Part shown: in pieces, positions 19,989 through 56,177 of the stretch
How the letters are laid out: the number at the start of each line of letters is the position of its first letter
Numbering within the stretch: the first letter of the stretch is position 1
Virus record (IMG/VR): IMGVR_UViG_3300025789_000018
DNA length: 64,000 nucleotides
DNA from: a virus
Taxonomy: Duplodnaviria > Caudoviricetes
Direction: 5' to 3' (one strand)
The notes under the pieces: generated by a model
What the model was told of the DNA's origin: nothing
Database searches by the model: none
Seen by the model: the letters and a program-made list of their open reading frames with translations, nothing else
Translations under genes and position numbers: made by a program

Positions 19989-20054
19989 GCTGATTCTCCT
20001 GCATAGAGTTAGTGTGGGTGGATGCTCTAACATCGTGACCCACAACTACTTATA
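19989..20054 (-). promoter_or_regulatory. Structured leader (late promoter, stem-loop, CTAAC, AGGAG, ATCAGC), copy 1
   Basis: TATAAGTA GTT GTGGGT..ACCCAC A CTAAC N7 AGGAG AATCAGC ATG. Homologous copy at 56105-56177. Confidence 0.65.
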
Positions 20055-20088
20055 CAAATAGAAATCTTCAATCATATCACAGACGGGT

Positions 20089-20829
20089 TTATCCGATCAT
20101 GTCCGCGCAAGGCAATGACCACGTGGTATACATCTCTTGTTCTAGCCTATCAATCTCTTTTTGAGCATCATCTCTGATCTTATCACCGTTAAACTTGTTT
20201 CCACCTGGTAGATTGATACCTGTATACTTTGTTAAGTTGTCGCCCCATTGACGCTTGACTAGTGCAGCAGCATATTGTGTCAACCAACGATCTGACCATA
20301 CTCCACCATATACGGTTGGATCAATGATCTGATATGCTTCAACGATTAAGAAGCTTCCTGGTTGTACAATGTCCCAAGCCATATCTAGATATAGAATGTT
20401 GTTGTAACGATTGAAGCGAAGTGGCTGTTGACCGACTAGAAGCTGTTCAAGAAACTGAATATGCTGCATAGCAAGATAGTATGGTACCATCGTTGTAGCA
20501 GTCAAGTCATATAGATCGTTCAATGTGATCTGATAACGAATGTTGAACAGATTATTTGATGACAACGATTCACCAACAGGGAATAGATTGACTGCACCAA
20601 TGATGTTCGATGGTAGAGTGATATACTGATTTTCAATATCAGTTGGAGTTACCTGATACTTGTAATAGGTCTTTTCAGAACCTTCGAAGTGATAGTCCCA
20701 GAAGAATGTCAAAGCTTCATCAATACGATCAGAAACTTGATCGTCATCAACGTTGATATCAATAACAGGCGCACCTAGACGGCGAAGAATGTAATATTTA
20801 AATTCATCCCTATTAGTAGGTATTGACAT
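20089..20829 (-). CDS. gp13: Neck protein
   Basis: Y.LRRLGAPVI.INVDDDQ..DRI.EAL.FF.DYHFEG, W...Y..AL.KRQWG.NL.KY.G..LPGG...NG. Confidence 0.97.
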   Translation of the reverse strand: MSIPTNRDEFKYYILRRLGAPVIDINVDDDQVSDRIDEALTFFWDYHFEGSEKTYYKYQVTPTDIENQYITLPSNIIGAVNLFPVGESLSSNNLFNIRYQITLNDLYDLTATTMVPYYLAMQHIQFLEQLLVGQQPLRFNRYNNILYLDMAWDIVQPGSFLIVEAYQIIDPTVYGGVWSDRWLTQYAAALVKRQWGDNLTKYTGINLPGGNKFNGDKIRDDAQKEIDRLEQEMYTTWSLPCADMIG

Positions 20830-21430
20830 TTTCTATATTCCTCTTTGTCTTATACTTCTTGTTGTTTTCACCAACTTCTGGTCTAATCTTTCCGTGCATA
20901 GGATTATTAACGCCAGACATTCTTTCAGACATTTTACGTTTTCTTTCCTCTGACCATTTTGTTCCTTTCATAGGATTGTTGGTCAGTGCTTTTTGTCTTC
21001 TTTTTTCTATTATGTCCGGTCTTTTATTGAACTCTACAGTATCTGGTCTTTTTCTTCCATACATAGGATTCTTTTCACCTACGTGTTGTCCTGTTCTGGT
21101 TTTACTTATATTGCTTTTAACTTCTTCTGTAAATATGACAGCACGACCGTCGTGTTTGTTTAACCACACATTATTGGTTTCTCTAATTTTCAATCTTCTT
21201 AAAACTTTATGTTCCCATTCTATAGAATCTTTAGCATCTTTGAACGTTTTTCTTATCTCGAACTCAAAAGAATCGTCGCCATATTCTTTTCTTAGTGATT
21301 TAACGACATTAGAAGATGTGAAATACTTTGTCCAGAAATCGTCAGGATGACATCCTTCTTTATATCTTACACCATAATAGAACATATTTGTCGGTATATG
21401 ATGTAGTAAGTAGGTATATGGTGTTGTCAT
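20813..21430 (-). mobile_element. GIY-YIG-like homing endonuclease with NUMOD3 repeats, inserted in the 5' end of gene 13
   Basis: PYTYLL....T..FYYGVRY..GCHPDDFW.KYFTSS, GEKNPMYGRK, NNPMHGK. Paralog of 32882..33583. Confidence 0.8.
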
Positions 21431-21498
21431 ATAACAGGAGCGCCAAGTCTTCTGAGTAGATAGTATTTGAACTGTTCTCTTGAGTTTGGAACTGCCAT
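21427..21498 (-). pseudogene. Orphaned original 5' end of gene 13 (23-codon mini-ORF)
   Basis: Translates MAVPNSREQFKYYLLRRLGAPVI* versus gp13 MSIPTNRDEFKYYILRRLGAPVIDI. The stop overlaps the endonuclease ATG (ATGA). Confidence 0.85.
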
Positions 21499-21521
21499 TG
21501 CTTCTTCCTATTGTTTATTGT

Positions 21522-21529
21522 TATTTATG
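21522..21529 (-). promoter_or_regulatory. Late promoter variant CATAAATA upstream of the gene 13 region
   Basis: One mismatch to consensus, followed by AGGAAG RBS and the mini-ORF ATG. Confidence 0.55.
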
Positions 21530-21844
21530 TTATAACCATTGACCAAGAAGATCATCAACATGTGGCATAGGATTACGATATAAGTTCAATATGACTGTAT
21601 TGTCTTCTAGTGCTTTGATTTCGTGATGTTGTTTATCATCGGTGTAATATAAAAAATCTCCAGTATTGGCTTTATATAACCACTCTTTGTCTGGACCATA
21701 TGCTTCTATACTGCCGTTGATAACAACTGTATCATGATAGTTCTTTGGTCCATGTTGATGCATCTCTAATACATCTTCAGCTTTTGCGAATACCATTTTT
21801 AGCCAATATACATTTTCATGTTTTTGGAATTGAGATTTGATCAT
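21530..21844 (-). CDS. Small cupin-like protein downstream of fibre/adhesin genes
   Basis: H.H....HDTVVINGSI and HHEIKALEDNTVILN beta-barrel pattern. Confidence 0.55.
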   Translation of the reverse strand: MIKSQFQKHENVYWLKMVFAKAEDVLEMHQHGPKNYHDTVVINGSIEAYGPDKEWLYKANTGDFLYYTDDKQHHEIKALEDNTVILNLYRNPMPHVDDLLGQWL

Positions 21845-22482
21845 TATGAGTATGTAAAAGTAACTTGTCCAGCAGCACCAGCACCGCCTACGTTTCCGTT
21901 AGGATTACTAAAGTTACCGCCCGCACCACCACCACCTGGCGGATTACCAGACGATCCTTTTGTAGTCTGAGTAGCGCCACCGTTAGGAGATGCCGCGCCA
22001 TTTGATGTTTGTCCACCACCACCGCCGCCTGATGTATTAACGTCTCCTCCACTAGCTGTTCCTCCTGTGCCCTGAAATGCAGTACCAGATCCAGCAGCAC
22101 CACCAGTGCCACCGTTTGCAGTCAGAGAGAAAGAAGTAGTAAATGTATTCTGAGAAGATGTTGTCGTTCCTCCTGTGCCTCCAGCTGCGGAACTGCCGGC
22201 GCTACCAGCAGTTCCAACTGCATAGTTTAACGTTTGACCCCAGTTTGAAGAAGTTAGAGATATAGTTTTTTTTGAGTAAGCACCTGCTCCGCCGCCACCG
22301 CCAGGTTGAGTTATACAAATATTGCTACCATGACCACCACCACCGCCAGCACCCCAAGTTTCAATAACTACTTGTGATGCTCCAGTAGGAATAGAATCAG
22401 TTCCACTGCCTGATGTGTATGTTCTTGTTACTGGCGGAAAGTATTTCTTCGAACCAAGAAACGCCATCTGAATACCACTCAT
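21844..22482 (-). CDS. Glycine-rich tail-tip adhesin-like protein (gp38-like), paralog 1; probable start MSGIQMAF at 22482
   Basis: VIETWGAGGGGG.. and repeated GxGG motifs, ending GAAGQVTFTYS. Directly follows fibre 22484..25939. Confidence 0.6.
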   Translation of the reverse strand: MSGIQMAFLGSKKYFPPVTRTYTSGSGTDSIPTGASQVVIETWGAGGGGGHGSNICITQPGGGGGAGAYSKKTISLTSSNWGQTLNYAVGTAGSAGSSAAGGTGGTTTSSQNTFTTSFSLTANGGTGGAAGSGTAFQGTGGTASGGDVNTSGGGGGGQTSNGAASPNGGATQTTKGSSGNPPGGGGAGGNFSNPNGNVGGAGAAGQVTFTYS

Positions 22483-22483
22483 A

Positions 22484-25400
22484 TTATGATACTCCTGCTC
22501 CACCAACAAACCATCTATCAACAGCAACACGAATGCAAGTTGCAGTTGCACCAGCAACTAGAGTTCTGCTTCCTGTTGTTGTAGTTCCCGCTAACTGGAT
22601 TGTAACGTTACCAGCACCAGCAATCGTAAGTGTGGCAGTATTGCCATTGATTATGCTGATAGCAGCACCATTCGCCCAAGCAACTGTGGCGTTATTGGCA
22701 ATAGTGTATGTCAAAGTTCCTGTATTGGCTGCATTGAAGATATGACCACCAGAATCTGATGCTGCTGTTGTATAGCTTGTATTCTGAATATTCTGTGGAA
22801 TATCTCTGTAGCCAACTGCATATGCACCAGCACCATAGTTGACTGTTGTGCCTCCACCAGTGAATGCTTGGTTACCAGAGATTGTGTAGTTGCCTGAAGT
22901 GTTGACATAGCTTGCAGCCGCAACACCACCGAGATTTGTTGCATTGTTTGATGTCAACGTAGCTACATTCGCAGCAAGTGTTGAGTTTAGTTGATAAGAA
23001 GCTGCTGAGACACCACCGAGATTTGTTGCATTGTTTGCAGTGCCAGCAGTAAATGATAGTCCTGTACCAGTTAGACCTGAACCAGAACCAGTAAATGTAG
23101 TTGCCGTTACTGTGGTAAATGTAGCAGAGTTTGCGGTAGTACCACCAATAGCAGCAGGAGAAGCCCAAGAATATCCTGCAAACAAAGTAGCATTCGCCGC
23201 TGTACCACTAATACCTAAGCCGTTTGTTGAGTTTGCATAAGCTTGGCTTGTATTCGCGACAGCATTAGCAACAGCATTTGTGAATGCGGTAGCTGCAATA
23301 GTTGCTGCATATGATGTTGCGTTTGTGTAAGCTGCCGAAGCATTGCTTGTGATAGCTGTATTGACAGTTCCTAATGAAACACCACCAAGCTGTACTGCAT
23401 TTACACTCGTTACACTAGCGCCATTACCAGAAATGTTATTAGCATAAAGATTCCAGACAAAGCTTGTGTTGCCTAGATTTAGATTATTCGCAGCAGGAAT
23501 AAACGCAACGTTTGATTGCCATGCAGGAATAGCTGAGTTGTAAATCAAGTTAGCAAATGTGCCAACAACAATACCAGCATTGTTTGATGTAATGGCATTC
23601 GTTGCACTGTTCGCAAGTACAAGATTTAAATCATTTGTTGTGATAACAGTTGAGTTGATGAATGTTGTAGTACCAGCAAGTGTTAGATTTCCAGTGACAG
23701 TCAAGTTACCAGAAACAGTAGCACCACCCGAGACGTTTAGACTTGCTGCATTTAGTGTGGTAAAGTTTGCTGTGTTTGCTGTAGTTGTACCAATAGAACC
23801 TGGAGCAGCCCAAGCAGCACTATTGAGCGTGAAACCATTGGTCGAGTTTGCCCATGAGCCAGGATTTGTTGTTGCAATATATGCTGTATTGACTGAAACA
23901 CCAGTGGCTGATACTGCAATACTGTTATCCGCATTTGCAACATAGACTGTGCCCGATGATGTGATAGTACCACCATTCAAGCCATTGGCAAAAGCAATAG
24001 ATGTGACTGTTCCTGGATTTGTTGTTACTGTACCCCAATAAACACCACTGATCGAGTTCGACATTAGAACTTTGCCAGAAGCACCAGACAATGCACCGTT
24101 TGCTAGAACAATCGAGGTTGTGCTGAATACAAAACCATTTGCAATAGTATTGCCTGTGAATGTTGTATTGCCTGCAATCGTGAAAGCGGCTGTTGTGTTT
24201 ACGATGTTTGTTGGAAGCTGTGCATATGGCAAAGTACCAGATGACATGTTTGATGCATTGGTATAATAACTAGCTGGCTGACCATTGAAGTTGGTTGAGT
24301 TATTTGCAGTAAGTGTTGCTACGTTTGTAGATAGACCAGCAGTTGTCTGATAGTTTCCTAGATTTGCTGATAGTTGTGCGTTAGATACAACATTAGCGGC
24401 TGATACAGAACCTACAAAGTTTGCGCTATTTGATGTGCCAGTAAATGTTGTTGAGTTGATCGTAGCATTGACAGATGCGTTGCCGATAACGATTGTGTTT
24501 GTGTTTACAGCAACACTATTCGCTGCTGTTCCAACATAAACATTTGACGACGCATTAACAAAGCCAGCATTTAGATTGCCAGAGACAGTTGTTGCTATTA
24601 CGTTTGTGACGTAAATATTTGACCAAACATAACCAGTATTACCGAGTGTGTATGTGACGTTTGCTCCAGGAATGAAACTACCATTAGCAACGACTGTGTT
24701 TGAGTAAGTAACTGCACCAGTAACGTATAGATTGCCTGATACTGTAACATTAGCAGAAAAGGTAGAGTTGCCTGTGACGTTCAATAGACCACCGACTGTG
24801 ACATTAGCAGTAGCATTTACCTGAGCAGTATTGACTACTATAGCAGCAACGTTAGCTGTAACTGTTGTTGCCGAAACTGTTGTCGCAATAACATTCGCTG
24901 TGACTGTGGTACCAACCAAGTTAGCATTGACTGTTGTTGCATTCAACGTTGTGGCATTTACAGTTGTTGTATTGACGTTGCCTACGTTGGCGAGACCAGT
25001 TACTGTGATTGTCCCTGGAGTAAGAGTAGTAACGACAGATGTATTGCCAAGAACAACTGATGTTGTATTTGCTGAGAAACCATTTGTAGTACCGATTGTG
25101 CCAATAAGCAATGCGCCTGTAGCATTTGCAACAGCTACACCAGAAGAGTTGATTACAACATTACCAGCAGCAACAACACTAGCATTTGACGCATAGACTG
25201 TTGTGGTAGAAACGTTTGCCGTTGCATTAACAATCGATGTGACCACCGCTGTTGAGTTGATTACTGAGTTGGCAGTTGAGTTGCCAATAACAACGTTTGA
25301 TGCGGTTAGAACACCACTTGTGTTTGTTGTTAGATTATAAAGTGCTTCTACAACTGAGTTGCCATATCCATAAACTGTGCTATTACCAACATTGGCAGAA

Positions 25401-25939
25401 GATGAGTTGATTAGATATACACTGGTGTTTACCCCACCAGCCGCAGTAACTAAAGCGTCATATGTAGAGTTGCCAAAGCCATATGCTGTGGAGTTACCTG
25501 TAAAGAAGTGTGTTGTATTGATCTGTGTGTTTACGGTACTGTTACCTAAAGTAACTAGTGTTGCGTTTGCAGAGAAACCTTGAGTTGTTCCAATAGTTGA
25601 AACAAGAAGAGATCCAGTAGCATTTGCAACAGATACGCCAGAAGAGTTGATAACAACATTACCAGCAGCAACAACACTAGCATTTGTGGCATAGACTGTA
25701 ACAGTGTTGACATTGATTGTAGAGGTAAGAGAACCAGTGACGTTTACGTTTGCACCAGCATTCACTGTACCAGTGATTACAACGTTGCCTTGAACGTTTG
25801 CTGTACCAGTAACAGTAAGAGCAGCATCGGGAGAAGTGTTATTGATACCTACGTTAGTCGTACCACCCACAGCATAGATTAGACTGCCATTAGCGATGAT
25901 ACCATTCTTTGCGATGAATGTTGAGTTAGTAGATGACAT
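22484..25939 (-). CDS. Long tail-fibre protein (1151 aa) with internal repeats
   Basis: N/T/A/V/S-rich beta-repeat shaft, duplicated 50-aa block, NNATNLGGV repeats, C-terminal domain similar to that of 26650..28650. Confidence 0.75.
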   Translation of the reverse strand: MSSTNSTFIAKNGIIANGSLIYAVGGTTNVGINNTSPDAALTVTGTANVQGNVVITGTVNAGANVNVTGSLTSTINVNTVTVYATNASVVAAGNVVINSSGVSVANATGSLLVSTIGTTQGFSANATLVTLGNSTVNTQINTTHFFTGNSTAYGFGNSTYDALVTAAGGVNTSVYLINSSSANVGNSTVYGYGNSVVEALYNLTTNTSGVLTASNVVIGNSTANSVINSTAVVTSIVNATANVSTTTVYASNASVVAAGNVVINSSGVAVANATGALLIGTIGTTNGFSANTTSVVLGNTSVVTTLTPGTITVTGLANVGNVNTTTVNATTLNATTVNANLVGTTVTANVIATTVSATTVTANVAAIVVNTAQVNATANVTVGGLLNVTGNSTFSANVTVSGNLYVTGAVTYSNTVVANGSFIPGANVTYTLGNTGYVWSNIYVTNVIATTVSGNLNAGFVNASSNVYVGTAANSVAVNTNTIVIGNASVNATINSTTFTGTSNSANFVGSVSAANVVSNAQLSANLGNYQTTAGLSTNVATLTANNSTNFNGQPASYYTNASNMSSGTLPYAQLPTNIVNTTAAFTIAGNTTFTGNTIANGFVFSTTSIVLANGALSGASGKVLMSNSISGVYWGTVTTNPGTVTSIAFANGLNGGTITSSGTVYVANADNSIAVSATGVSVNTAYIATTNPGSWANSTNGFTLNSAAWAAPGSIGTTTANTANFTTLNAASLNVSGGATVSGNLTVTGNLTLAGTTTFINSTVITTNDLNLVLANSATNAITSNNAGIVVGTFANLIYNSAIPAWQSNVAFIPAANNLNLGNTSFVWNLYANNISGNGASVTSVNAVQLGGVSLGTVNTAITSNASAAYTNATSYAATIAATAFTNAVANAVANTSQAYANSTNGLGISGTAANATLFAGYSWASPAAIGGTTANSATFTTVTATTFTGSGSGLTGTGLSFTAGTANNATNLGGVSAASYQLNSTLAANVATLTSNNATNLGGVAAASYVNTSGNYTISGNQAFTGGGTTVNYGAGAYAVGYRDIPQNIQNTSYTTAASDSGGHIFNAANTGTLTYTIANNATVAWANGAAISIINGNTATLTIAGAGNVTIQLAGTTTTGSRTLVAGATATCIRVAVDRWFVGGAGVS

Positions 25940-25971
25940 TTCGGTTCCCTCTCCCCGATTGATATTCTACT

Positions 25972-25979
25972 TATTTATA
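25972..25979 (-). promoter_or_regulatory. Late promoter for the 1151-aa fibre cassette
   Basis: Exact TATAAATA upstream of the GGGAGAGG RBS. Confidence 0.8.
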
Positions 25980-25990
25980 ACAAACAAACA

Positions 25991-26650
25991 TTATGAATAA
26001 GTAAACTGAACTTGACCATTGGCACCAGCACCGCCAGGGCTACCAGATGAACCACCAAAGTTCCCACCAGCACCACCACCACCTGGTGGATTACCAGCGC
26101 CCCCACTAGTAGTTTGCGCAGAGCCACCTGGTGTTGTGCCATTTGGTGCAGCAGCGCCCGTTAAAGTCTGTCCGCCACTACCATTACCTGATGTGTTTGT
26201 ATCACCACCAGAAGCTGTACCGCCCGCACCCTGATTACCGGTACTACTTCCTTGAATGCCTCCCGAACCTCCAGTTGTCAATAGCGAAAATGATGTTGTA
26301 AATGTGCCCTGTGCTGTATTAGATGATCCACCAATACTACCAGGGCTTGCTGTTCCAGATCCACCTGCGCCACCTGCGCCGACTGAATATGTGAAAGTTT
26401 TGCCCCAGCTGGTCGAAGTTAGTGCAAACGTTTTTTTCGAATAGCCACCAGATCCGCCACCACCACCAGCAGTAGTGATACATAAACTAGAACCATGCCC
26501 ACCACCACCGCCAGCGCCCCACACTTCAATAATAACCTGTGATGTGTTTGTGGGTATTGTTTCAGTTCCTGTGCCTGACGTGGTGTACTTGTGTACGGTT
26601 GTAGAGGTTCTTCTCTTTTCAAGCCCAATCATAGATGGCATAATAAACAT
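25991..26650 (-). CDS. Glycine-rich tail-tip adhesin-like protein, paralog 2; probable start MFIMPSMIG at 26650 (TAATG overlap)
   Basis: IIEVWGAGGGGGHGSSLCIT.., ending GANGQVQFTYS. Clearly paralogous to 21844..22482. Confidence 0.6.
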   Translation of the reverse strand: MFIMPSMIGLEKRRTSTTVHKYTTSGTGTETIPTNTSQVIIEVWGAGGGGGHGSSLCITTAGGGGGSGGYSKKTFALTSTSWGKTFTYSVGAGGAGGSGTASPGSIGGSSNTAQGTFTTSFSLLTTGGSGGIQGSSTGNQGAGGTASGGDTNTSGNGSGGQTLTGAAAPNGTTPGGSAQTTSGGAGNPPGGGGAGGNFGGSSGSPGGAGANGQVQFTYS

Positions 26651-28650
26651 TAAGCAGTATCTCCACCAAGTACCCAAACAGCCGCGGCACCAGCATTTGA
26701 TCTTACGTACACTGTTGCTAATGCCCATTGACCACCAGTATTTGCACCAGTTGATCTATGAAAGAATGTTGTACCAGCAGCGTTAGCAAATGTAACGTTG
26801 CCTGTATTTACTTGAACGATTGTGCAAGTAAACCCAGCGGGCGCACTATTTGGAAGTGTTACGGTTGCAGCAGCAGTATTGTTTATTTCAAGTATTTTAC
26901 CAGAATCCGTATTTGCAAGAGTATAAGCTGTTACTGATTGTAAGTTTACGTTTGCAAGGAACCCTGTGATAATAGAGTTAGAGAACGTGGTCGCTGCGTT
27001 AGTGATAACCACGTTCTGTGTTGCATTTCCTACAGTAACGTTTGCTGTTGCGGTGTATATAGCAGCATTCACTACACCAGTTGTATTTGCTACGAATACA
27101 CCAGATGTATTTGCGATTACGTTAGATGATGCTAGATTAGATGATGTCGTTACAAACAACGTTGCTGTGTTTGTTTGACCAGTAATGTTGATTGCAGCAG
27201 TATTTACCAATGTAGAGTTAGCAGTAAATGTTGTGCTAACGTTGATAGAGCCTGTCGCGTATAACTTTGTAAGATTTAATGTACCAGATGAATCATTTTG
27301 TGTACCATTGCCTAGTGACAATGACGCGGCAGCAGAACGAGAAATACCCGAATCATTATTCCAAGATACTACTTGACCAGCAGCAACATTTACATAACCT
27401 GTTGTGGTTATACCTGTTGAGTTGGCAATAAATGAAGTACCGACAGAGTGTACAGCAGCGTTTACTACACCAGTTGTATTGGATACAAAGACACCGGCAG
27501 TATTAGCAATAACGTTAGATGACGCCAAGTTTGCTGATGTTGTTACAAACAATGTTGCTGTGTTTGTTTGATATATCACGTTTAATGAAGAAGCATTGAC
27601 CAGCGTAGAGTTGGCAGTAAGTGATATGCCTAGACCAGTTGAGTTGGCAATATAGAAACTATCACAACCAACCGCATATTTGTTGGTGGTAGTGATATTA
27701 GTTCCATTTGCTGGATTCTGAAAATATGTTCCAAAAAGATTCGTTACATTGTAAGTATTTAATGACGCAAGCGTTTGCGTAGCAAAATAGTTCATATACA
27801 AGGAATTGATATTGCTTGTCCCGAACGTATCTGTCCAAGTGGCGGGAAATTGACTTAACGAGAAGCTATAGTTTATAGCACCGGAGTTAACCTGACCACC
27901 ACCAGGAAATAAAGTAGTTTGACCGGCAAGTGTAACTGTACAGTTGGCATTTGCGGTTACTGTTCCGATTGCAATCGCAGTAGTTGTACCAGATCCGTTT
28001 AGGGCTCCCATCGTGATGGAGAGTTTATTTCCCGATGCGAGTGTGCCGCCACCAATATATATGGTTTGGTTTGCTGAAGATTGACCTAGAGTGATTGTTC
28101 CCCGACCTGTTGTTCCACCAATCGTTATTAAGCTTGTAGAGTTGCCAGTAACAAAAAAACCTGAGTTGACAGTCAAGTTGGAGTTAAATATTTGTGTGTT
28201 TGTCCAAGTATATTGTGCAGCAGTATTAATACCACTAACAGTGCCCCAATAAACATTGCCGACACCATTAGATGTCAGAACCTGGCCTACTGTGCCTTGT
28301 GATCCTGTCGAATCGATGATCTTAGAACCAGATGCAAAGGTTAAGTTAGCAGTGGATGTTAATCCAATGTTTGCTGTTGCAATGTAAATAGCAGCGTTTA
28401 CTACACCAGTCGTATTGGATACAAAGACGCCGGCTGAGTTGATCGATACGTTACCACCAGATACGCTGTATGATGGAGCATTTGCGCCCACTACCAACAA
28501 GTTTGTGCCGTCAGATGTATAGAGAATCTGATCTGGCATATTCAACGCAAGACCGCCAGCATTGATATACTGACTGTTGGTTGAAACCGTAGTATTAGGT
28601 TGTCTACCAGCAACAGATGTGCGGAAGACTTGCAACACAGTATTGGCCAT
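26650..28650 (-). CDS. Tail-fibre protein (666 aa)
   Basis: N-terminal LQVFRTSVAGRQP..GGLALN..DQILYTSDG resembles distal-fibre attachment motifs. Shaft repeats are shared with the 1094-aa protein. Confidence 0.75.
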   Translation of the reverse strand: MANTVLQVFRTSVAGRQPNTTVSTNSQYINAGGLALNMPDQILYTSDGTNLLVVGANAPSYSVSGGNVSINSAGVFVSNTTGVVNAAIYIATANIGLTSTANLTFASGSKIIDSTGSQGTVGQVLTSNGVGNVYWGTVSGINTAAQYTWTNTQIFNSNLTVNSGFFVTGNSTSLITIGGTTGRGTITLGQSSANQTIYIGGGTLASGNKLSITMGALNGSGTTTAIAIGTVTANANCTVTLAGQTTLFPGGGQVNSGAINYSFSLSQFPATWTDTFGTSNINSLYMNYFATQTLASLNTYNVTNLFGTYFQNPANGTNITTTNKYAVGCDSFYIANSTGLGISLTANSTLVNASSLNVIYQTNTATLFVTTSANLASSNVIANTAGVFVSNTTGVVNAAVHSVGTSFIANSTGITTTGYVNVAAGQVVSWNNDSGISRSAAASLSLGNGTQNDSSGTLNLTKLYATGSINVSTTFTANSTLVNTAAINITGQTNTATLFVTTSSNLASSNVIANTSGVFVANTTGVVNAAIYTATANVTVGNATQNVVITNAATTFSNSIITGFLANVNLQSVTAYTLANTDSGKILEINNTAAATVTLPNSAPAGFTCTIVQVNTGNVTFANAAGTTFFHRSTGANTGGQWALATVYVRSNAGAAAVWVLGGDTA

Positions 28651-28684
28651 ATGGCACCTCTAAGTCAACTGGTATGTACCAGTA

Positions 28685-28891
28685 TTAAAAATCTTCTTCA
28701 GTCTTCTTTGCTACTGACTTCTTTCCTGCTTTATCTAAAGCAATCCGAAGCTTTTCGTTCTCAATATTTAGTTCTTCAATCGCCTTTGTTTTGAAATGAG
28801 AGTCCGTCTCTAGAAACAAGACTCTCGTTTGCAAGTCGATTAATGTAGCTTTCATCTTTTCAATATAAACAGTGATAAACTCTTCAGTCAT
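28685..28891 (-). CDS. Small coiled-coil protein (possible fibre-assembly factor)
   Basis: Heptad-like LIDLQTRVLFLE..IEELNIENEKLRIAL. AGGA RBS. Confidence 0.45.
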   Translation of the reverse strand: MTEEFITVYIEKMKATLIDLQTRVLFLETDSHFKTKAIEELNIENEKLRIALDKAGKKSVAKKTEEDF

Positions 28892-28903
28892 AATATATCC
28901 TTA

Positions 28904-32878: not shown

Positions 32879-32881
32879 ATT

Positions 32882-33583: not shown

Positions 33584-33605
33584 AACACTTTCCTATCTTT
33601 TCTTT

Positions 33606-43889: not shown

Positions 43890-43897
43890 TATTAATC

Positions 43898-47062: not shown

Positions 47063-47063
47063 C

Positions 47064-48851: not shown

Positions 48852-48854
48852 GGT

Positions 48855-49286
48855 TTACCTAATGCGATAAAGGATTGTAGAAAGCGTAACAGGTTTATTT
48901 ATGTTTACAATATAGAATGTGATAGTGATCGCATATGCATTTTGCTCTTCATATGGAGTAGCAATAACAGAGATTAATTTTGCTCTTGGTTCATGGTTTG
49001 CGATAATGTTTTCTATTTCAATCTGAATACCACTTTGAGTGATAGAACTAATAGGTTCGAACAAATAGTTGCGCAAGTTTCCTCCTATATCTGGTTGAAA
49101 CGGGCGGTCATATTTGTTTGTTAAAATAAGATTTAGAATCGACTGACTTACCGCGTCTTCGTTCTTTTTTATGACAAGATCATGCAATTCTGGATGCACC
49201 ACAAAGTTGTCGAACAGATCGCTATAAAGAAGCGACTGTGAGGCTGTAGGTGTGAACTTGTCTTGGTTAAACGATGACTGTGCCAT
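48855..49286 (-). CDS. gp25: Baseplate wedge subunit
   Basis: YSDL...F..HP..DL...KNEDAV.QSI.NLILT...DRPFQP..G..LR..LFEP, EPRA.L..V. Confidence 0.95.
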   Translation of the reverse strand: MAQSSFNQDKFTPTASQSLLYSDLFDNFVVHPELHDLVIKKNEDAVSQSILNLILTNKYDRPFQPDIGGNLRNYLFEPISSITQSGIQIEIENIIANHEPRAKLISVIATPYEEQNAYAITITFYIVNINKPVTLSTILYRIR

Positions 49287-49287
49287 A

Positions 49288-50748
49288 TTATGTTCCTGCT
49301 ACGGGAATTGGTATTTGATTGAATGTAATACTTGCACTTGTATTTGATGATGTAGCATTATTAGACATAATAATAGCATTTACAATATAGTTTAAAGTAA
49401 TCGTGTTTGGTGTTGTTCCTAAATAAGGAGCAGAAACAGTAACTAGATTGTTATATACGTTCGTAACTGTACAACCATTAGCAAATGCGGGATCAGTTGA
49501 TGTCAATGCCAAACCAATCACAACATTACTATCTATAGGCGACATCGTTAAGACAGAGGACTGTGATGTACTGATAGTTGCAGAGAATGAACCAGGCGTA
49601 TTACTTATAGACACTGCTGTTGTATTTGCTGGAATAGATCCATCGGCTGCAACCAACACTTGACCGATTGATACGGCCGTGTTTACATCATAGTGTATAA
49701 TCTGATTATTGCCAGAAGTCACGGTGCCAGTAAATGGAGAAGATGTTATTGTCACGTTTGATACGTAATTTTGCAAAAACTCTGCGTGTGTGTTTCCAAT
49801 AGCAACCGCGCTAGTTAAGAAGTTCGCAGTGTTTGAAGTGTCGTATATAGGATATCCATTTGAGCCAGATGATCCTAATAAAGTTGTGACTTGTTGTTGC
49901 ATCTGGCTTACTCTTTGTAGAGCAGGAGCAGCGGCAGATGAAACTGTTGATTGTATGCCATTAACAACACTTAATGCAGCAGTACCTGTTGTAATATCAA
50001 CTGCTTTTGATACTGCATTGATTTGACTGACAAGTGTATTTGTCACAATATTATTATTGCCTAAAGCACCTGTAACTGCGCTAATAGCAGCATTTTGCAA
50101 CTGAGATACCGCCGTATCAATGTTATTTATAACTGTATTGATTGGTTTAGTTACGGCAGATATTGCTTGATTTTCTAGATTTAGAATCTCGTTCTGTAGT
50201 TGATGTAAAGTCTGAATAGCACATGCTTCAAGTCTAGGCGCTGCCGCCTCAACGGCAACTACTAGTTTTTCTACTGCAATTCCAAGTTTGACAATAGCAA
50301 GTGTATACTTGATCTGTGCTTCAAGTTGTGGTGATATTGGACCAAGTATCAATTTTCCCAACCATGTAACAATAGATACAGGATTAGGTGAAGGTAAACT
50401 AGAAATGGGAAGATATTGCTTTACAATATCCAGTTCATGTTGTATTGCTTTTTTAGCTTTTGATTCAATGCCTGCCAGATTACGCTTTACAATCTTCTGT
50501 AAGTTATCACAATTCGTTGTATATTGAATCTGTGCAGTGAGTTTGTTGATATGTTCAATATTAACATCGATGTCTTGAATGTCACTATTGATCTTGGCAA
50601 TCTGTAAAGAAGTCTGCACAGATGCAGTAATCAAGTCAATTTCGCTTTGACTAAATGGAGGAATATTAATAGCCAAAGGAGCAGTAGCATTTAGTGCTGT
50701 TATCGAATCCGTAAGATTTGATGTAGTTACTGGTGGAGTTGATGCCAT
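49288..50748 (-). CDS. Unknown protein between gp5 and gp25: helical N-part plus nested 65-aa modules
   Basis: Long helical/coiled N-half; C-terminal module copies. Family not recognised. Confidence 0.45.
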   Translation of the reverse strand: MASTPPVTTSNLTDSITALNATAPLAINIPPFSQSEIDLITASVQTSLQIAKINSDIQDIDVNIEHINKLTAQIQYTTNCDNLQKIVKRNLAGIESKAKKAIQHELDIVKQYLPISSLPSPNPVSIVTWLGKLILGPISPQLEAQIKYTLAIVKLGIAVEKLVVAVEAAAPRLEACAIQTLHQLQNEILNLENQAISAVTKPINTVINNIDTAVSQLQNAAISAVTGALGNNNIVTNTLVSQINAVSKAVDITTGTAALSVVNGIQSTVSSAAAPALQRVSQMQQQVTTLLGSSGSNGYPIYDTSNTANFLTSAVAIGNTHAEFLQNYVSNVTITSSPFTGTVTSGNNQIIHYDVNTAVSIGQVLVAADGSIPANTTAVSISNTPGSFSATISTSQSSVLTMSPIDSNVVIGLALTSTDPAFANGCTVTNVYNNLVTVSAPYLGTTPNTITLNYIVNAIIMSNNATSSNTSASITFNQIPIPVAGT

Positions 50749-50750
50749 GG

Positions 50751-51584
50751 TTAATCTATTCCTGTAATAATACCACTATCAAAATATACGTTATCGCCTG
50801 TCGGTGTTGTGAATGTTCCTGATGGGTATAAATCAGAAACAATGGCGCCGCTTGTAGTTATACCAGAACCTAGAACATGCAATCCACCTGGAGCATACAT
50901 TGAAATGTCTGTTGCAGACGTCATTGTAATACTATTAGCAATCATGTTGCAGTTTCCAGTTACAATAACTGTAGTGTCGCCTCCAACAAAAACATGTTTA
51001 TTCTTGACTATGATTTCCCATCCATCATCAACAATCTTGGAAACACTTTGTCCTGCACTATTTATTTCAGTGTATGTGCCTGATTTATGAAATACGCGGA
51101 CTCTTTCGTGACCAGGAGTATCGTCATATTCTATAACATGACCAGATCGTGTGACTGTCACTTGATTGTACGGATACTTTGCTGCATATGCTGAGTCTGG
51201 TTCTGTGCCAAACTTCTGTATATTAAGTGTGTTGATACCACGAGCAAGACCAGGCACATCATTCGTTGCTTGTGTGCCATCTGGTAGTTTAGCATACGTG
51301 CCCCAGATCATCGGCAATTGCTTTTCTTGCCCGTCTAGAAAGAATCCAAACACCTGAGAACCTACTAGTATACCTGTAGGAGATTTGCCTACTCCATTAT
51401 GACCAGCAGATGTTATATCTTGAATGGGTGTTGCCCAGAGTAATTCATTTGTTTGAATCGAAGGATCATCGTGTTCGTTGATGATACGAACGCGCACACG
51501 CCCAAGTTGCTGTGGATCGTTGACGTCTTCTACAGTTCCGATAAACCAACGAAACTGCTCTTCGCCCATTCTTTTTGTTGTCAT
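50751..51584 (-). CDS. gp5: Short baseplate hub/spike protein lacking a lysozyme domain
   Basis: WFIG.VED.NDP.QLGRVRVRI (OB fold), G..VFGFFLDG...Q.P.I.G, YPYN....RSGHVIEYDDTPG.ER....HKSGTY.EI. Confidence 0.92.
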   Translation of the reverse strand: MTTKRMGEEQFRWFIGTVEDVNDPQQLGRVRVRIINEHDDPSIQTNELLWATPIQDITSAGHNGVGKSPTGILVGSQVFGFFLDGQEKQLPMIWGTYAKLPDGTQATNDVPGLARGINTLNIQKFGTEPDSAYAAKYPYNQVTVTRSGHVIEYDDTPGHERVRVFHKSGTYTEINSAGQSVSKIVDDGWEIIVKNKHVFVGGDTTVIVTGNCNMIANSITMTSATDISMYAPGGLHVLGSGITTSGAIVSDLYPSGTFTTPTGDNVYFDSGIITGID

Positions 51585-51596
51585 AGAATATCTCCA

Positions 51597-52856
51597 TTAT
51601 GCATAATCATCATAGAAGCCCTTGATCAATTCCATTGACACCATATATGATTTTGGATTAGGCGCATTGTTTATGATGATGTGTCTGATTCTAGATATTA
51701 TATAGTTGCCATTGATAAGTCTGTTATCATCTGGCTTATCAGTAGCACCAGTTGGATTTGGTGTATTGATTGTGATGATATCACCAGCAGTCAATGCAAT
51801 ATCACCATATGTGAATGCTTGAAATATATTTTGTGATAACTTGTTCACAAATCCCATTCTAGCACCGATTGTTGAATCAATATAATTCTCCGGCAAATCG
51901 CTTGAATGCGGAACCAATAGTGCAGTCGATTTTGTGTTGCCATATTTGTTTTCAAACTGGGATGTGTTCAATGCCTTTGGATTAGAAGAAGCAAACTTGA
52001 ATTGCTGTTGCTTCTCGGCATTGATATATTGAGTCAACGATACTTTACCAGTAAGCAAATCGAAACGCTTTACAGTATTGTTAAGCCCACCTTGTGCCAG
52101 TTTTTGTGTGTTGTTCACCTGAGATACGGTTTTGAAGTCAATGAGACTTCGTGTGTTCAAGTTTCTTACATCTGTATTCTGTGTGGTATCATAGAAGAAC
52201 TGTTTGTCGTTGACATTATCTTGCAATTGATTCAGTAGGTACTCAATTGAACAAAAGTTGAATCCACGTTTGTTTTCAAAAAATACATATGATGATGAGA
52301 TGTAATCTTGTGACACGGCGCGTTTGCGAAGCATATCAATCGCTTGAAGTGGGCGCATACGACTCAAAAGAATATTCTGTGTGCCCTTTGTAGGATCACC
52401 TATTGATAATGTTTTTTTCGATTGCAATGTTGTGTTGAAGATTGCTCTTACAACATCATCAGTAGCGCCTTGATATTTGCTCACCAGAAATTGCTTCGAG
52501 TTCGTGATAAACTCTTCGCTGACACAAGACAAAGTGTACATCTTTGACTTGCCTTGAGACATAGTTTTCTGTTGTTCTATAGCCTTGACGTGAAAGGTAT
52601 AAGAGTTTGTGAAACTAAACCCTTCTTGACCAAATTCAATATCAATGGTTTCTTCACCCACAATAGGAAAAGAAGTCAATAGCCCGATAGCATCTATGAT
52701 TTTGATTTCTGCACGAATGCATGGAAACATTATATCTTCGTAAATATCAAAGGACAAGACCTGGCTACTAAGATCATACGACTTTGATCCGTCGAGCGAA
52801 TAAAGCGTGAGGTCAAGTATATTGATATTGTCGGATTTTACATAAGAGGCTGTCAT
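51597..52856 (-). CDS. Baseplate hub protein (gp27-like)
   Basis: IYEDI.FP..RA...I.DA..LL...PIVGEE, YVFFEN.RGFNF.SI..L, GNY.ISRIRH. Between gp53 and gp5. Confidence 0.7.
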   Translation of the reverse strand: MTASYVKSDNINILDLTLYSLDGSKSYDLSSQVLSFDIYEDIMFPCIRAEIKIIDAIGLLTSFPIVGEETIDIEFGQEGFSFTNSYTFHVKAIEQQKTMSQGKSKMYTLSCVSEEFITNSKQFLVSKYQGATDDVVRAIFNTTLQSKKTLSIGDPTKGTQNILLSRMRPLQAIDMLRKRAVSQDYISSSYVFFENKRGFNFCSIEYLLNQLQDNVNDKQFFYDTTQNTDVRNLNTRSLIDFKTVSQVNNTQKLAQGGLNNTVKRFDLLTGKVSLTQYINAEKQQQFKFASSNPKALNTSQFENKYGNTKSTALLVPHSSDLPENYIDSTIGARMGFVNKLSQNIFQAFTYGDIALTAGDIITINTPNPTGATDKPDDNRLINGNYIISRIRHIIINNAPNPKSYMVSMELIKGFYDDYA

Positions 52857-52857
52857 G

Positions 52858-53790
52858 TTATGTCAACAACAATGCTTTAAGTTCTTTGGTTGCTTGGGTG
52901 GCATATTTGTTGTCAAGAAGATTTATTGACTTGTTGGCTGTATTCTTTGCTGTCTCATAGTCATATGCTGTGACTGGGCTCCAGTAAATGAGTTCGTCAG
53001 AAGGAATATTTGTACTCAGAGTAACTGGAGTTGATGAAACAGTTGCAGATGCACCAGAAGTCAAGCCAACTATTGGACCAACTGTTGGTGTAACTGCGAT
53101 GTGTTGTATTAGAATATATTGATCATTGGGATCAACATAACTCACTGTTCCCAGAGTAACTCCGTTTTGAGCAACAAGTTCTCCTACGACAAATGAGATA
53201 AACTCGGATCCACCTTCTGGTGCAGTAATATCATATCCGTTTTCTGTGTCTAATACAAGACCACTTTCTGTCGTAATCTCTGTTGAATACTGAAGCGGAA
53301 CTTGTTGGACCATATTGGTCGTAACAATCCAATCTTCCTGTTTTCTCACATACTCATAGATGTTGTTGTTCTGATCTATATTTGGATCCCAATACTTCTG
53401 TTGCCCAACTCCTAGTGATGCATAGTAAGTTGGTGAAATGTTGGATTCGTCTATCGCCCAGTTAGTTTGAAAATAAAGAATCTTTTGTTGTGCTGCTGCA
53501 ATGCTGCCATACTTTTGAATGATGAAGTTGTTCAGATCATAGTCATCCAATGGGTAATCATAATAAGGATCATTGATTTGATTTGAAAGCGCAATAAGCC
53601 ACACATAATCTGGGTTGTCATAATAGTTGTACGATAGACTATCTGGTCTCATGCCATCTGGAATCACATAAGAATAATAGGCTTGCTTTGAGTTCAAAGC
53701 CATCTTCGTCATGTTTACACGAGACATGATATTCACCGCGGAGGTGTTATTATAATTGATGACTGGAAACTTTGCAAAGTATTGTGTCAT
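52858..53790 (-). CDS. gp53: Baseplate wedge protein
   Basis: YFAKFP.I.Y, Y.IPDG.RPD.LSY.YY.NPDY.WLI.L.N.I.DPYYDYPL, YDYE...N......LL...Y. Confidence 0.92.
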   Translation of the reverse strand: MTQYFAKFPVINYNNTSAVNIMSRVNMTKMALNSKQAYYSYVIPDGMRPDSLSYNYYDNPDYVWLIALSNQINDPYYDYPLDDYDLNNFIIQKYGSIAAAQQKILYFQTNWAIDESNISPTYYASLGVGQQKYWDPNIDQNNNIYEYVRKQEDWIVTTNMVQQVPLQYSTEITTESGLVLDTENGYDITAPEGGSEFISFVVGELVAQNGVTLGTVSYVDPNDQYILIQHIAVTPTVGPIVGLTSGASATVSSTPVTLSTNIPSDELIYWSPVTAYDYETAKNTANKSINLLDNKYATQATKELKALLLT

Positions 53791-55091
53791 TGACCGTTTC
53801 CTCCGCTACCAGGATTTTGTTGTCCGCCTATGCCATTTAAACCAGTGACAACCTGAGTTGCGTCGCTCGTTCCTTTTGTGAAACCTTTAGCCAATGATGA
53901 AACGGCAGAAGAAAGCGTGCCAGTCAAAACACCTAACAATGCAGAATCGGCATTCGTGCCTCCCATATTAGTGGATGCACCGTAATCTGTTGGCAGTCTG
54001 TATTCCATTTCTTCTAGTTCCATAGTCAAAGCTATAAAAACAGGAGAGTTTATTCCAGCATAAAATGCTGGCGCAACATCTTGTGGAGAATAGTTGACGT
54101 TTATGGATTTTATAACGCACCACTTAAAGTCCGTCATGTATGTTTCTGTTTGTGAAGGATTGATTTTAGGCTTCACTATACAAGGATATTGAAACAAAAG
54201 ACTTGATCCACCGGCGGTGAAACTTGGCAAATGTAACTGTTTCATTGTTTTGATTATATTATTCAATGTTACACTTTCTGATGGCGTTTTAGGTGAGAAT
54301 AGCCAATTGAAAGTGAACGATCTGAAATTAATACCAGTGAACATCATAGATAAGCTAGGATTAGGTGCAACGCCGGCAGCAGATTGACCAAGATTAGAAG
54401 CTTCTGCTCCCATAGTTCCCGCTTGAGATATTGCATATAATGCACCAACTGCGGCCGCATCAGAAGCTATATTTGCGGCACTGGCTGGGCTTGTAGAAGT
54501 AAGACTATCGTATATATTACCTAAAGAACCTAATTCTGCTTCTGCCCAGCGCGCGGAAGTATTGTCAACAAGGCCGCTGCCGTCTGGTAGAGGAAGATTG
54601 ACAGTATAAACGGGATTGATAGTTGTGTTTCCTAGCGGATTGGTTCTCACATAATTTGCAAAAGAAAGAGTCATGAAATATTTACTAGAACCTAAGTCTT
54701 CTGGATAATGATCGTCCGGATCATTAGTTGTAAGTTGATTAGAGTTTACTTTTATCTCTGGATTAGATTGCTCTTGTGATGCGAAGTTTCTATTCTGCAA
54801 TGCGTTTGATGTGATTCGCTCTGGAGAACCAGATGTATAGAATGAACTTGATCCAGATATTAGTTTGTCAACACCAGCGGCAACTAAACCTCCTACAGAC
54901 ACACTACTAGCGCCAGCAGCGGTAAGTGAAGTTGCTGTAGAACTAGCAATAGATCCAGAAGATCCCAATGCACCTTGTGTGTTCTTGGTGATATTGTTCA
55001 CCGTTCCTGTGGCAGATGATGTGATGTTACTCAATATTGTCTGGTTTACAGGTTGAACGTAAGGATTATTGGTTATATTGGAGACAGCCAT
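53787..55091 (-). CDS. gp48: Baseplate tail-tube cap
   Basis: LPLPD, NP....F.GI.FRSF.F.W..SPK...ES, F.YP, F..CVI.SI.VNY.P, L.MEL.E. Confidence 0.85.
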   Translation of the reverse strand: MAVSNITNNPYVQPVNQTILSNITSSATGTVNNITKNTQGALGSSGSIASSTATSLTAAGASSVSVGGLVAAGVDKLISGSSSFYTSGSPERITSNALQNRNFASQEQSNPEIKVNSNQLTTNDPDDHYPEDLGSSKYFMTLSFANYVRTNPLGNTTINPVYTVNLPLPDGSGLVDNTSARWAEAELGSLGNIYDSLTSTSPASAANIASDAAAVGALYAISQAGTMGAEASNLGQSAAGVAPNPSLSMMFTGINFRSFTFNWLFSPKTPSESVTLNNIIKTMKQLHLPSFTAGGSSLLFQYPCIVKPKINPSQTETYMTDFKWCVIKSINVNYSPQDVAPAFYAGINSPVFIALTMELEEMEYRLPTDYGASTNMGGTNADSALLGVLTGTLSSAVSSLAKGFTKGTSDATQVVTGLNGIGGQQNPGSGGNGQ

Positions 55092-55127
55092 TTATTTCCC
55101 TATAAGTATAGCATCACGCTTATGTAT

Positions 55128-55135
55128 TATTTATA
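55128..55135 (-). promoter_or_regulatory. Late promoter for gp48
   Basis: Exact TATAAATA. Confidence 0.75.
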
Positions 55136-55165
55136 GAGAAAAAATGAAAGGCAAGTTCATCTTCT

Positions 55166-56104
55166 CTATTTTGAGTAAAGTTCTCTTTCCGTCATCACAA
55201 CAAACTCCCATCCTTTGTCATCCGCGTGTTCTTTCGCTGCTTTCCATTTGGCTTGGTTAACAACATACGTCTTTACTTCTTCAATGTATCGCTTTGTTTG
55301 TGTTTTAGGTCTTTTTGGTTCCTGTGTTTGCGCATATGGTTTGATTTCAACCAATATAACTTTGCCGTCTTTTTTCTTTATTAGTACGTCTGGAAAGTAT
55401 CGGTGATATCTACCGTCTATAGGAGAGACATAAGGTATTGTCATTTCTTCTGATGCCCATCCTGATATCTCTGGATGCTTGTCACAATACATAAAGAAGT
55501 GTAGTTCCCAAGAACTTCTGTATATTATGTTTGTGGGATCTCCCATATACTTACTTGGATTTTTGGGAGTGAACTTACCTTTTGACATGGATACGTATCC
55601 AGCTTTTCCTGTTGTTATATTATTAATACATTGTTCTGCGCCTGTTTTATTTAGTCTAGCGATAGTTTCTTCATCACAGGTGTAGTATCTACTGTATCGC
55701 TCTTTTCGTTCTTGCGGAGAAAGATGAGAGGCAGTATTGCTTTCTCTCATCTTTTCTTTTAGTTCGACAATACTGCCATCCGCATAACGTTCTTTCCATA
55801 TTTTAGTTTGATTTGTTTTGACTTTATCGATAAACTTATCATAGCGTATATCATCATTTTTTAGATTTTCTCTAAAAAACTTTGCGCCGCATTTGTGTCC
55901 ACATGTGGATGAAAATCCAACTCCTAGTCCTTTGAACTTGGTATGAGACGAACAGATCGCACATTTGTTGTCGCCGATGTAAGTAAGATAATATGTCTCT
56001 GATGATATATTGTGTTTTTGTAATATGTGTCTAGCTAGAGATAGAGTAGACTTGAAATCTCGAAAACATATTCGACATTCCATATCAGATGTATAAATAG
56101 ACAT
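55166..56104 (-). CDS. gp4: Head completion nuclease (TnsA-like) fused to an N-terminal zinc-finger region
   Basis: C-half KGKFTPKNPSKY.GDPTNIIYRSSWE..RYFPD..VEIKP..QT..P..VNQAKW.AA. N-half CRIC..HILQKH and CAIC..CGHKC. Confidence 0.9.
   Translation of the reverse strand: MSIYTSDMECRICFRDFKSTLSLARHILQKHNISSETYYLTYIGDNKCAICSSHTKFKGLGVGFSSTCGHKCGAKFFRENLKNDDIRYDKFIDKVKTNQTKIWKERYADGSIVELKEKMRESNTASHLSPQERKERYSRYYTCDEETIARLNKTGAEQCINNITTGKAGYVSMSKGKFTPKNPSKYMGDPTNIIYRSSWELHFFMYCDKHPEISGWASEEMTIPYVSPIDGRYHRYFPDVLIKKKDGKVILVEIKPYAQTQEPKRPKTQTKRYIEEVKTYVVNQAKWKAAKEHADDKGWEFVVMTERELYSK
56092..56099 (+). promoter_or_regulatory. Late promoter for the + strand block, lying inside the first codons of the gp4 fusion
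   Basis: Exact TATAAATA on the + strand. Confidence 0.6.
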
Positions 56105-56177
56105 AGCTGATGCTCCTTGTAAGCGTTAGAGTAGATGGGTTTCTTGGCGGTCACCGCGATCTACATTATTATTTATA
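56105..56177 (-). promoter_or_regulatory. Structured leader copy 2 (late promoter 56170-56177)
   Basis: TATAAATA ATAAT GTAGAT..ATCTAC T CTAAC N7 AGGAG CATCAGCT ATG. Confidence 0.65.

Follow-up and report, generated by a model that had tools for sequence, protein, structure and literature searches.

The 64,000-nucleotide stretch of DNA analyzed here (the window; IMG/VR virus record IMGVR_UViG_3300025789_000018), which comes from an uncultured T4-like phage, carries two copies of a short cassette that extends across the start codons of two minus-strand genes. The element is almost certainly real; it is undescribed, comprises ~85 bases, is widespread in uncultured T4-like phages, and travels with selfish nuclease genes. 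A first-pass annotation of the window had regarded it as a structured leader shared by two mRNAs. The pattern of base pairing and the presence of a second, inward-facing late promoter motif instead lead us to propose, on the basis of sequence, that the cassette probably encodes a transcribed, repressing cis-antisense RNA of ~65-70 nucleotides, of the type exemplified by RNA-OUT of IS10.

Both copies were confirmed by re-reading the minus strand, where they have the common order that the first-pass annotation had reported, i.e. late promoter, stem, CTAAC, seven nucleotides, AGGAG, an ATCAGC-type block, and ATG. The features of the two copies are as follows, with arrows marking minus-strand readings.

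Copy 1, entire cassette: 20055→19986, minus strand.
Copy 1, outer late-type box TATAAGTA: 20055→20048 (20048..20055), minus strand; its plus-strand reading is the U-rich tail after hairpin B.
Copy 1, hairpin B, sense reading: 20043→20014, minus strand; outer stem GTGGGT/ACCCAC, CAC bulge, inner stem GATG/CATC.
Copy 1, hairpin B, antisense reading: 20014..20043, plus strand; outer stem of 6 base pairs, bulge of one versus three nucleotides, inner stem of 4 base pairs, 6-nucleotide loop.
Copy 1, order after the hairpin: minus strand; CTAAC, 7 nucleotides, AGGAG (20000→19996), AATCAGC, ATG (19988).
Copy 1, antisense helix A: 19989..20013, plus strand; nine pairs (three of them G·U) and a 7-nucleotide loop starting CCU (anti-Shine-Dalgarno), from the plus-strand fold, the R2 alignment, and family covariation.
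Copy 1, inner late-promoter-like box GATAAATA: 19976..19983, plus strand; within codons 2-5 of the open reading frame (ORF), directed away from the nuclease gene, its position kept across the family.
Copy 1, downstream gene: 19284..19988, minus strand; a 234-residue GIY-YIG-type homing endonuclease, inserted between gp13 and gp14.
Copy 2, entire cassette: 56177→56102, minus strand.
Copy 2, outer late promoter TATAAATA: 56177→56170 (56170..56177), minus strand.
Copy 2, hairpin B, sense reading: 56164→56131, minus strand; outer stem GTAGAT/ATCTAC, CGC bulge.
Copy 2, hairpin B, long-loop form: 56131..56164, plus strand; the 5′ arm holds the ATG (56135) of the gp2 ORF.
Copy 2, order after the hairpin: minus strand; CTAAC, 7 nucleotides, AGGAG (56117→56113), CATCAGCT, ATG (56104).
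Copy 2, antisense helix A: 56107..56129, plus strand; eight pairs (two of them G·U), loop CCUUGUA.
Copy 2, inner box, an exact TATAAATA: 56092..56099, plus strand; within codons 2-5 of the zinc-finger/gp4 ORF and facing gp2.
Copy 2, downstream gene: 55166..56104, minus strand; a 312-residue zinc-finger/gp4 ORF.

Helix A of copy 1 is the reverse complement of the sense sequence CTAAC...AGGAG...ATCAGC, and the inner box of copy 2 is the sole occurrence of its sequence on the plus strand of the window. Both downstream ORFs begin M-x-I-Y, this start being itself part of the cassette; the two proteins are otherwise unrelated (BLASTP E = 0.19), in agreement with the first-pass annotation. A 24-nucleotide pattern shared by the copies matches nowhere else in the window, and shuffled sequences give 0.02 matches even when two mismatches are allowed; this test is, however, post hoc, and the real proof of the element comes from copies outside the window. 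A chance likeness between two strong translation starts was considered and is ruled out, since the other late genes of the window, which have a late box and a Shine-Dalgarno site but no hairpin, score no higher than 17 bits against the covariance model. The pairing of the loop sequence GTTAG with CTAAC that had been suggested for copy 1 is real in that copy; it is not conserved, the loops of other copies being different, and a pseudoknot was therefore rejected as a feature of the family.

Searches of IMG/VR reveal the extent of the family. A scan with a degenerate pattern gave 28 loci, in 27 of which a late box lies 2-5 nucleotides before the hairpin. When six outer-stem positions were left free in a second pattern, at least 119 stretches were recovered, and among the matches listed the six positions were perfectly complementary in 43 of 51 distinct variants of very different sequence. 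Covariance model R1, which in the window finds the two copies and nothing else, was also used for IMG/VR; the covariance-model searches gave 153 hits (132 distinct copies) at 138 IMG/VR loci, and the outer stems, which covary, exist in 48 different versions. Four copies are present in a single complete phage record of 283 kb. The covariation first noted between the two window stems is a property of the family as a whole. The record nearest to the window, a 62-kb IMG/VR fragment (G001), keeps copy 2 at 95% identity; its gp13/gp14 site is occupied by a different endonuclease gene, and another copy of the leader precedes a third endonuclease gene. The leader (~815-862) of the gene at the G001 gp13/gp14 site, which encodes a 219-residue GIY-YIG protein (L002 863-1522), passes from the late box directly into the post-hairpin motif and looks like a hairpin-less version of the cassette.

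No named RNA family was found to correspond to the cassette, and none had been recognized in the first-pass annotation. Rfam at gathering thresholds identifies only three tRNAs in the window, and permissive scans of both loci return only chance snoRNA noise, so a known RNA family was ruled out at either level. No cassette match was obtained in GenBank phages by megablast or blastn, nor was a cassette found when the model was searched against S-PM2, QB2, S-SSM6b, ACG-2014b, and Marzo.

The proposal of a structured mRNA leader is not supported when one considers which strand folds, in that the sense strand forms the bulged hairpin only, and helix A is confined to the opposite strand. This ~8-base pair helix has the CTAAC and ATCAGC blocks as its arms, their complementarity depending on G·U pairs, and the 7-nucleotide loop that they enclose begins with CCU, an anti-Shine-Dalgarno sequence. 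In helix A, ~20% of pairs are G·U and 96% of distinct copies have at least one; the third pair is G·U in 98 of 100 copies, and the middle of the helix covaries freely. Hairpin B, which can be drawn on either strand, shows the same bias. In a model built on the sense strand, A·C occurs ~15 times in ~11 independent stems at the nine reliable pairs, and G·U does not occur at all; these A·C cells are G·U pairs on the opposite strand.

Folding energies and alignments point the same way. For the Shine-Dalgarno segment, i.e. that from the hairpin to the start codon, the mean minimum free energy is -6.2 kcal/mol antisense versus -2.2 kcal/mol sense, the antisense strand being better in 126 of 132 copies; relative to shuffles, the mean z-scores are -2.1 and -0.2, respectively. 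RNAalifold, applied to 23 sequences aligned with MAFFT, gives -21.2 kcal/mol for the antisense strand with both helices present, versus -13.7 kcal/mol for the sense strand, on which helix A is reduced to 3 base pairs. In the MAFFT alignment of the 23 antisense-oriented copies, 98.8% of cells pair and two-sided changes are seen at 10 of 18 pairs; slid controls pair at 31-42%, and none of 500 shuffles reaches the observed score. With 101 distinct model-aligned copies read antisense, 97.7% of cells pair and 14 of the 18 pairs covary, and the ratio of G·U to A·C cells is 170 to 7, or 72 to 7 when the invariant G·U pair is left out. It is likely, and in our view strongly so, that the fold has been selected on the antisense strand. 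Thus, the first-pass suggestion of a cis-regulatory RNA holds in so far as the element is conserved, covarying, and unnamed, but not as to location, the conserved structure not being on the mRNA.

These results bear directly on an alternative in which the cassette is a sense-strand cis-regulatory leader, with hairpin B at the 5′ end of the late mRNA or close to it, where it would protect from 5′-end-dependent decay or bind a regulator, and with the remaining conservation reflecting the translation-initiation region. Hairpin B does also form on the sense strand, where the copy 1 leader has a z-score of -2.7 and the consensus pairs covary, and a late start about one helical turn on from the box (PMC2988020) would, given the 2-5-nucleotide spacer, lie at the base of the stem. 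There is, moreover, a precedent in seg43(25) of Aeromonas phage 25, where a stable hairpin lies directly before a ribosome-binding site that it does not sequester (PMC2988022). For spacers of 2-5 nucleotides, the predicted start falls on stem positions 1-4 of hairpin B. However, spacers of 2-3 nucleotides would place the start inside the stem, with loss of part of that stem, and the sense leader of copy 2 folds no better than shuffles (z = -0.07). A sense-strand leader would also leave unexplained helix A, in which ~20% of sense pairs would be A·C, the lack of any G·U beside ~15 A·C cells in sense hairpin B, and the conserved inward-facing box considered below. We regard it as unlikely.

The inward-facing box lies immediately after the start codon, where the family keeps T-ATT-TAY (codons 2-5, M-x-I-Y), the other strand of which gives ATAAATA, the core of the late box. 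In 78% of copies codon 2 ends in T, compared with ~40% at later wobble positions, and the amino acid encoded by codon 2 varies. Of 23 HNH-type genes, in which I-Y is not catalytic and M-x-I-Y just precedes the HNH motif, 22 retain the box, and some copies retain it in another frame (M-Y-L). Within the window, the minus strand has 22 occurrences of ATAAATA, most of them close upstream of minus-strand genes, and the plus strand has three, i.e. at 19977 (copy 1), at 56093 (copy 2), and at 58364, upstream of a plus-strand gene; shuffles give ~8 per strand. It follows from this census that antisense ATAAATA is avoided across 56 kb of minus-strand genes, save for the two cassettes. The inner box could be discounted on the grounds that TAC synonyms of TAT occur, an objection that was considered and is overturned by the position counts, the HNH and frame-shifted cases, and the strand census. 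Late transcription starts about one helical turn after the box (PMC2988020); a start from the inner box would fall on the conserved G that opens helix A, this G being complementary to the CAGC that precedes the ATG.

The organization that we propose is a portable unit of ~85 base pairs built around two facing T4-type late boxes, ~75 base pairs apart. The outer box would drive the nuclease mRNA, the 5′-untranslated region of which would be largely unstructured around an open Shine-Dalgarno site. The inner box would start an opposite-strand RNA of ~65-70 nucleotides adjoining the start codon, with the predicted order helix A with its anti-Shine-Dalgarno loop, bulged hairpin B, and a U-rich tail that is the complement of the outer box. 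Perfect complementarity to the whole 5′-untranslated region would allow this RNA to anneal to the nuclease mRNA and keep ribosomes from binding, and interference between the facing promoters would be expected as well. Antisense pairing and promoter interference would together keep the level of the selfish nuclease low late in infection. Promoter activity and the 5′ and 3′ ends of the predicted RNA are assigned from motifs; firing of the inner box, an RNA end after hairpin B, and repression are what we infer.

Several observations weigh against this proposal. The tail that follows hairpin B, the stem of which is bulged, contains a mean of 5.2 U in 9 nucleotides across the family, but that of copy 1 is U-poor, with ~3 U in the 8 nucleotides after the stem. 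A simple scan for terminators was negative for both strands of both copies. At copy 2, an antisense transcript must read through hairpin B if it is to serve gp2, which is a poor fit to a terminated small RNA. The I-Y of the conserved start also begins the GIY motif, so that in GIY-YIG genes conservation of the inner box is partly at the protein level. With regard to the fold, the model-fitted alignment (A8) was built on the antisense model, which inflates the pairing figures, and composition alone makes a GU-rich strand fold better than its AC-rich complement, an effect for which the shuffle z-scores correct only in part.

Another possibility is that the antisense hairpins are simply a terminator or insulator, acting against opposite-strand transcription that enters from downstream (early 'anti-late' transcripts, or those of a divergent neighbor), with no dedicated small RNA gene. 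Such a role would accord with selection of the fold on the antisense strand ahead of a U-rich stretch, and with the presence of a divergent structural gene immediately past the cassette, both at copy 2 and at one copy in G001. It is nevertheless very unlikely, given the lack of a canonical terminator in the scan of either copy, the inward box that is conserved at the nucleotide level and at a fixed distance from helix A, and the absence of antisense ATAAATA elsewhere in the 56 kb of minus-strand genes; the anti-Shine-Dalgarno loop of helix A would be needless for a plain terminator.

The association of the cassette with nuclease genes is apparent when the genes downstream are tabulated, one of the checks proposed with the first-pass annotation. 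Among 105 distinct downstream proteins, 60 match phrog_314 (GIY-YIG type) and 35 match phrog_655 (HNH type), both of them homing-endonuclease families, and 12 match phrog_12324; three are gp4, all of these being the window gene or its close relatives and the sole non-nuclease exceptions. Pfam identifies GIY-YIG, HNH, HNH_3, and NUMOD3 domains in representative downstream proteins. The 234-residue ORF of copy 1 has no Pfam or PHROG match of its own; it is 39% identical (E = 5e-18) to another ORF (L007), which matches the homing-endonuclease phrog_314. Some copies precede decayed remnants of 15-56 codons. In G001, from 46360 onward (L042 1501-1661), a cassette is followed by a 30-codon HNH-type remnant and its inner box has decayed, giving a picture of a dying copy.

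The cassette appears before GIY-YIG and HNH genes at many sites, and there are mosaic leaders, in which the same hairpin B and the same 242-residue ORF occur with two different helix-A (Shine-Dalgarno) segments; both helix-A subtypes are seen with both GIY-YIG and HNH genes. The earlier suggestion of a signal that accompanies selfish nuclease cassettes is borne out in this regard, save that the copy 2 gene is not a homing endonuclease. The conserved sequence of the cassette would let copies recombine, so that it moves between unrelated nuclease genes.

The same mosaicism could be taken to mean that the cassette acts purely at the DNA level, as a late-promoter counterpart of the PeSLs, with ~85 base pairs of portable homology by which nuclease genes are shuffled and with hairpins that are only insulators or terminators. 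Shuffling of this kind is mediated by PeSLs, in which a promoter and a stem-loop form a conserved cassette (PMC2839356, PMC4122927), and in one case, discussed below, a cassette has apparently been grafted onto a non-endonuclease gene, with seven codons added before the likely original start. Homology for recombination, however, requires neither compensatory changes, which are seen at 14 of 18 pairs, nor a strand-specific G·U pattern, and the stems, with 48 outer-stem versions, are the least conserved sequence and hence poor homology. As a complete explanation, recombination thus seems distinctly unlikely; it is in any case compatible with an antisense RNA, rather than exclusive of it.

Copy 2 is unusual in lying before a gene for a structural protein. 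Residues 174-311 of the 312-residue ORF are the gp4 head-completion (TnsA-like) domain, and the N-terminal ~170 residues have C2H2-like and Cys-rich motifs, for which the Pfam C2H2 matches are weak. In Stenotrophomonas phage Marzo (MZ326868; L045 2492-3103), the zinc-finger region is a separate, unannotated ORF of 203 residues that lies upstream of, and overlaps, the gp4-like gene, such that the GenBank record seems to miss a gene. The Marzo ORF starts M-S-H-C-L-E-C; in the window protein, M-E-C-R-I-C is preceded by seven additional residues, M-S-I-Y-T-S-D. By comparison of these starts, it looks as if a cassette together with its first codons has been grafted onto the zinc-finger/gp4 gene, before its likely original start. 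In a close relative (L071 4037-4597, minus strand), in which the cassette and the gp4 domain are retained, ~125 codons comprising most of the zinc-finger part have been deleted in frame between two short I/L-A-R repeats, so that this part seems dispensable.

It was considered whether the N-terminal region of the gp4 protein might be a decayed cassette-linked endonuclease; this was rejected, since BLASTP against the cassette-linked proteins gives only its own orthologues and Pfam only weak C2H2 matches. Protein Atlas leads for residues 1-172 (55589-56104) are viral DUF7487 small proteins, an 'endonuclease family' cluster, and a cluster of 303-residue viral TnsA-like gp4 plus NUMOD3 proteins. 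As a lead only, N-terminal DNA-binding additions to gp4 may be recurrent.

The neighboring gp2 ORF (56135-56797, plus strand) has the ATG at 56135, in the 5′ arm of hairpin B, as its only plausible start, and the cassette at copy 2 may function as a bidirectional late promoter, the inner box doubling as the gp2 promoter. The first ~10 codons of this ORF (M-G-F-L-A-V-T-A-I-Y) are the cassette hairpin read backwards. A similar sequence, M-G-F-x-Q-V-T-A-I-Y, recurs in a 22-codon extension of a structural gene beside another G001 cassette (L004 1509-2588). Cassettes read backwards can thus create or extend the starts of neighboring ORFs.

With regard to the wider context, nearly all window genes up to 56104 are on the minus strand and include those for T4-type neck, head-completion, baseplate, and tail proteins. 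Both cassette sites, in the gp13/gp14 and gp2/gp4 intervals, lie within this structural gene block. The closest cultured homologues of the gp4 protein are those of cyanomyoviruses, at ~50-60% amino acid identity. The window also has three tRNA genes (967-1048 and 1068-1138, plus strand; 61909-61997, minus strand) and a second GIY-YIG/NUMOD3 endonuclease gene, of 205 residues (20813-21430, minus strand), without a cassette. Preceding the latter are a late box (CATAAATA), the end of which is near 21521, and 23 codons that represent a diverged duplicate of the gp13 N terminus (region 20813-21530, minus strand); the stop codon of the duplicated fragment overlaps the endonuclease start (ATGA), and intact gp13 follows at 20089-20829. 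This arrangement looks like a homing scar that provides a promoter, a ribosome-binding site, and translational coupling.

By mechanism, the closest described systems are, by analogy, RNA-OUT/RNA-IN of IS10/Tn10 and art200 of IS200. RNA-OUT is a 69-nucleotide antisense RNA complementary to the translation-initiation region of the transposase (PMC5006887), and IS200 likewise has an antisense RNA, art200 (PMC4513863). The cassette resembles these at the level of motifs in having facing promoters, and in silico in having a structured RNA of ~70 nucleotides, the sequence of which perfectly complements the region where translation of a selfish enzyme is initiated; block of ribosome binding would be expected in the same way, and the effects of several copies in one genome could be additive, as in multicopy inhibition. 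By contrast with RNA-OUT and art200, its promoters are phage late boxes rather than sigma-70 promoters, its predicted RNA has two hairpins with the anti-Shine-Dalgarno in a loop, and its targets are homing endonucleases of two unrelated families, between whose genes it is exchanged; there is no sequence or Rfam relationship.

A different strategy is used for the T-even endonuclease genes I-TevI, I-TevII, I-TevIII, and segB, and for Aeh1 mobE, in which a late promoter is nested in a hairpin that sequesters the ribosome-binding site (PMC2988022). These share with the cassette a late promoter directly upstream of a homing endonuclease gene, an RNA hairpin, and the presumed aim of limiting nuclease expression, and the position of hairpin B just upstream of a free ribosome-binding site is like that in seg43(25) (PMC2988022). 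The T-even hairpins, however, are gene-specific and form on the mRNA, where they hide the ribosome-binding site on read-through transcripts, the late start being inside the hairpin. In the cassette, the mRNA lacks structure in the Shine-Dalgarno segment (z = -0.2; 3 base pairs in the sense consensus), the box is upstream of the hairpin, the selected fold is on the other strand, there is a second, inward box, and the copies form one conserved family.

The PeSLs shuffle ORFans in T4-type phages by means of sigma-70 promoter plus stem-loop cassettes (PMC2839356, PMC4122927). Like the cassette, they are short, conserved, repeated units of promoter, stem-loop, Shine-Dalgarno site, and start codon that flank accessory genes and have signs of recombination between copies. 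PeSLs, however, have early promoters of the sigma-70 type and terminator stems that are GC-rich and variable in position, and occur in hyperplastic regions before ORFans, whereas the cassette has late boxes on both strands, a fixed architecture, and conserved bulges, and precedes homing endonuclease genes in the structural block. No sigma-70-like site was called on the sense strand of the cassette at either copy, such sites as were called being chance-level 9-of-12 matches, one of them over the opposite strand of copy 2.

Antisense transcription across from a homing endonuclease gene of a T4-like phage has a precedent in CfrI of cyanophage S-PM2 (Millard et al. 2010, as described in PMC2984593), an experimentally detected RNA of ~225 nucleotides that is antisense to the homing endonuclease gene and links it to psbA. 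An antisense RNA in the corresponding position is predicted for the cassette, although S-PM2 itself has no cassette match.

Homing endonuclease genes occupy up to a tenth of some T4-like genomes. To our knowledge, how phages tolerate these enzymes is understood only for a handful of T-even genes, in which control is by hairpins in the mRNA, autorepression, and the choice of promoter. If the present proposal is correct, GIY-YIG and HNH genes would be controlled in a general way by one conserved, portable antisense cassette, the copies of which can be located from sequence. It would at the same time add to the RNA families of phages a new one in which covariation is exceptionally abundant, and provide a clear example of regulatory DNA that is mobile independently of the genes under its control. 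In practical terms, each copy of the cassette in IMG/VR marks the start of a nuclease gene, and backward reading of the cassette explains odd extensions at the starts of neighboring ORFs.

More tentatively, and with slightly less than even confidence, it may be that the two-hairpin antisense RNA is a modular, exchangeable, RNA-OUT-like gene of T4-like phages from lakes and other waters, serving as a common brake on unrelated homing-endonuclease families. Since the anti-Shine-Dalgarno loop and the ends of helix A are common to the copies, the RNA could act in trans across genome copies or co-infecting phages, so damping homing in a copy number-dependent or cross-phage manner, and the cassette could be co-opted, as may have occurred at gp2/gp4, as a bidirectional late promoter.

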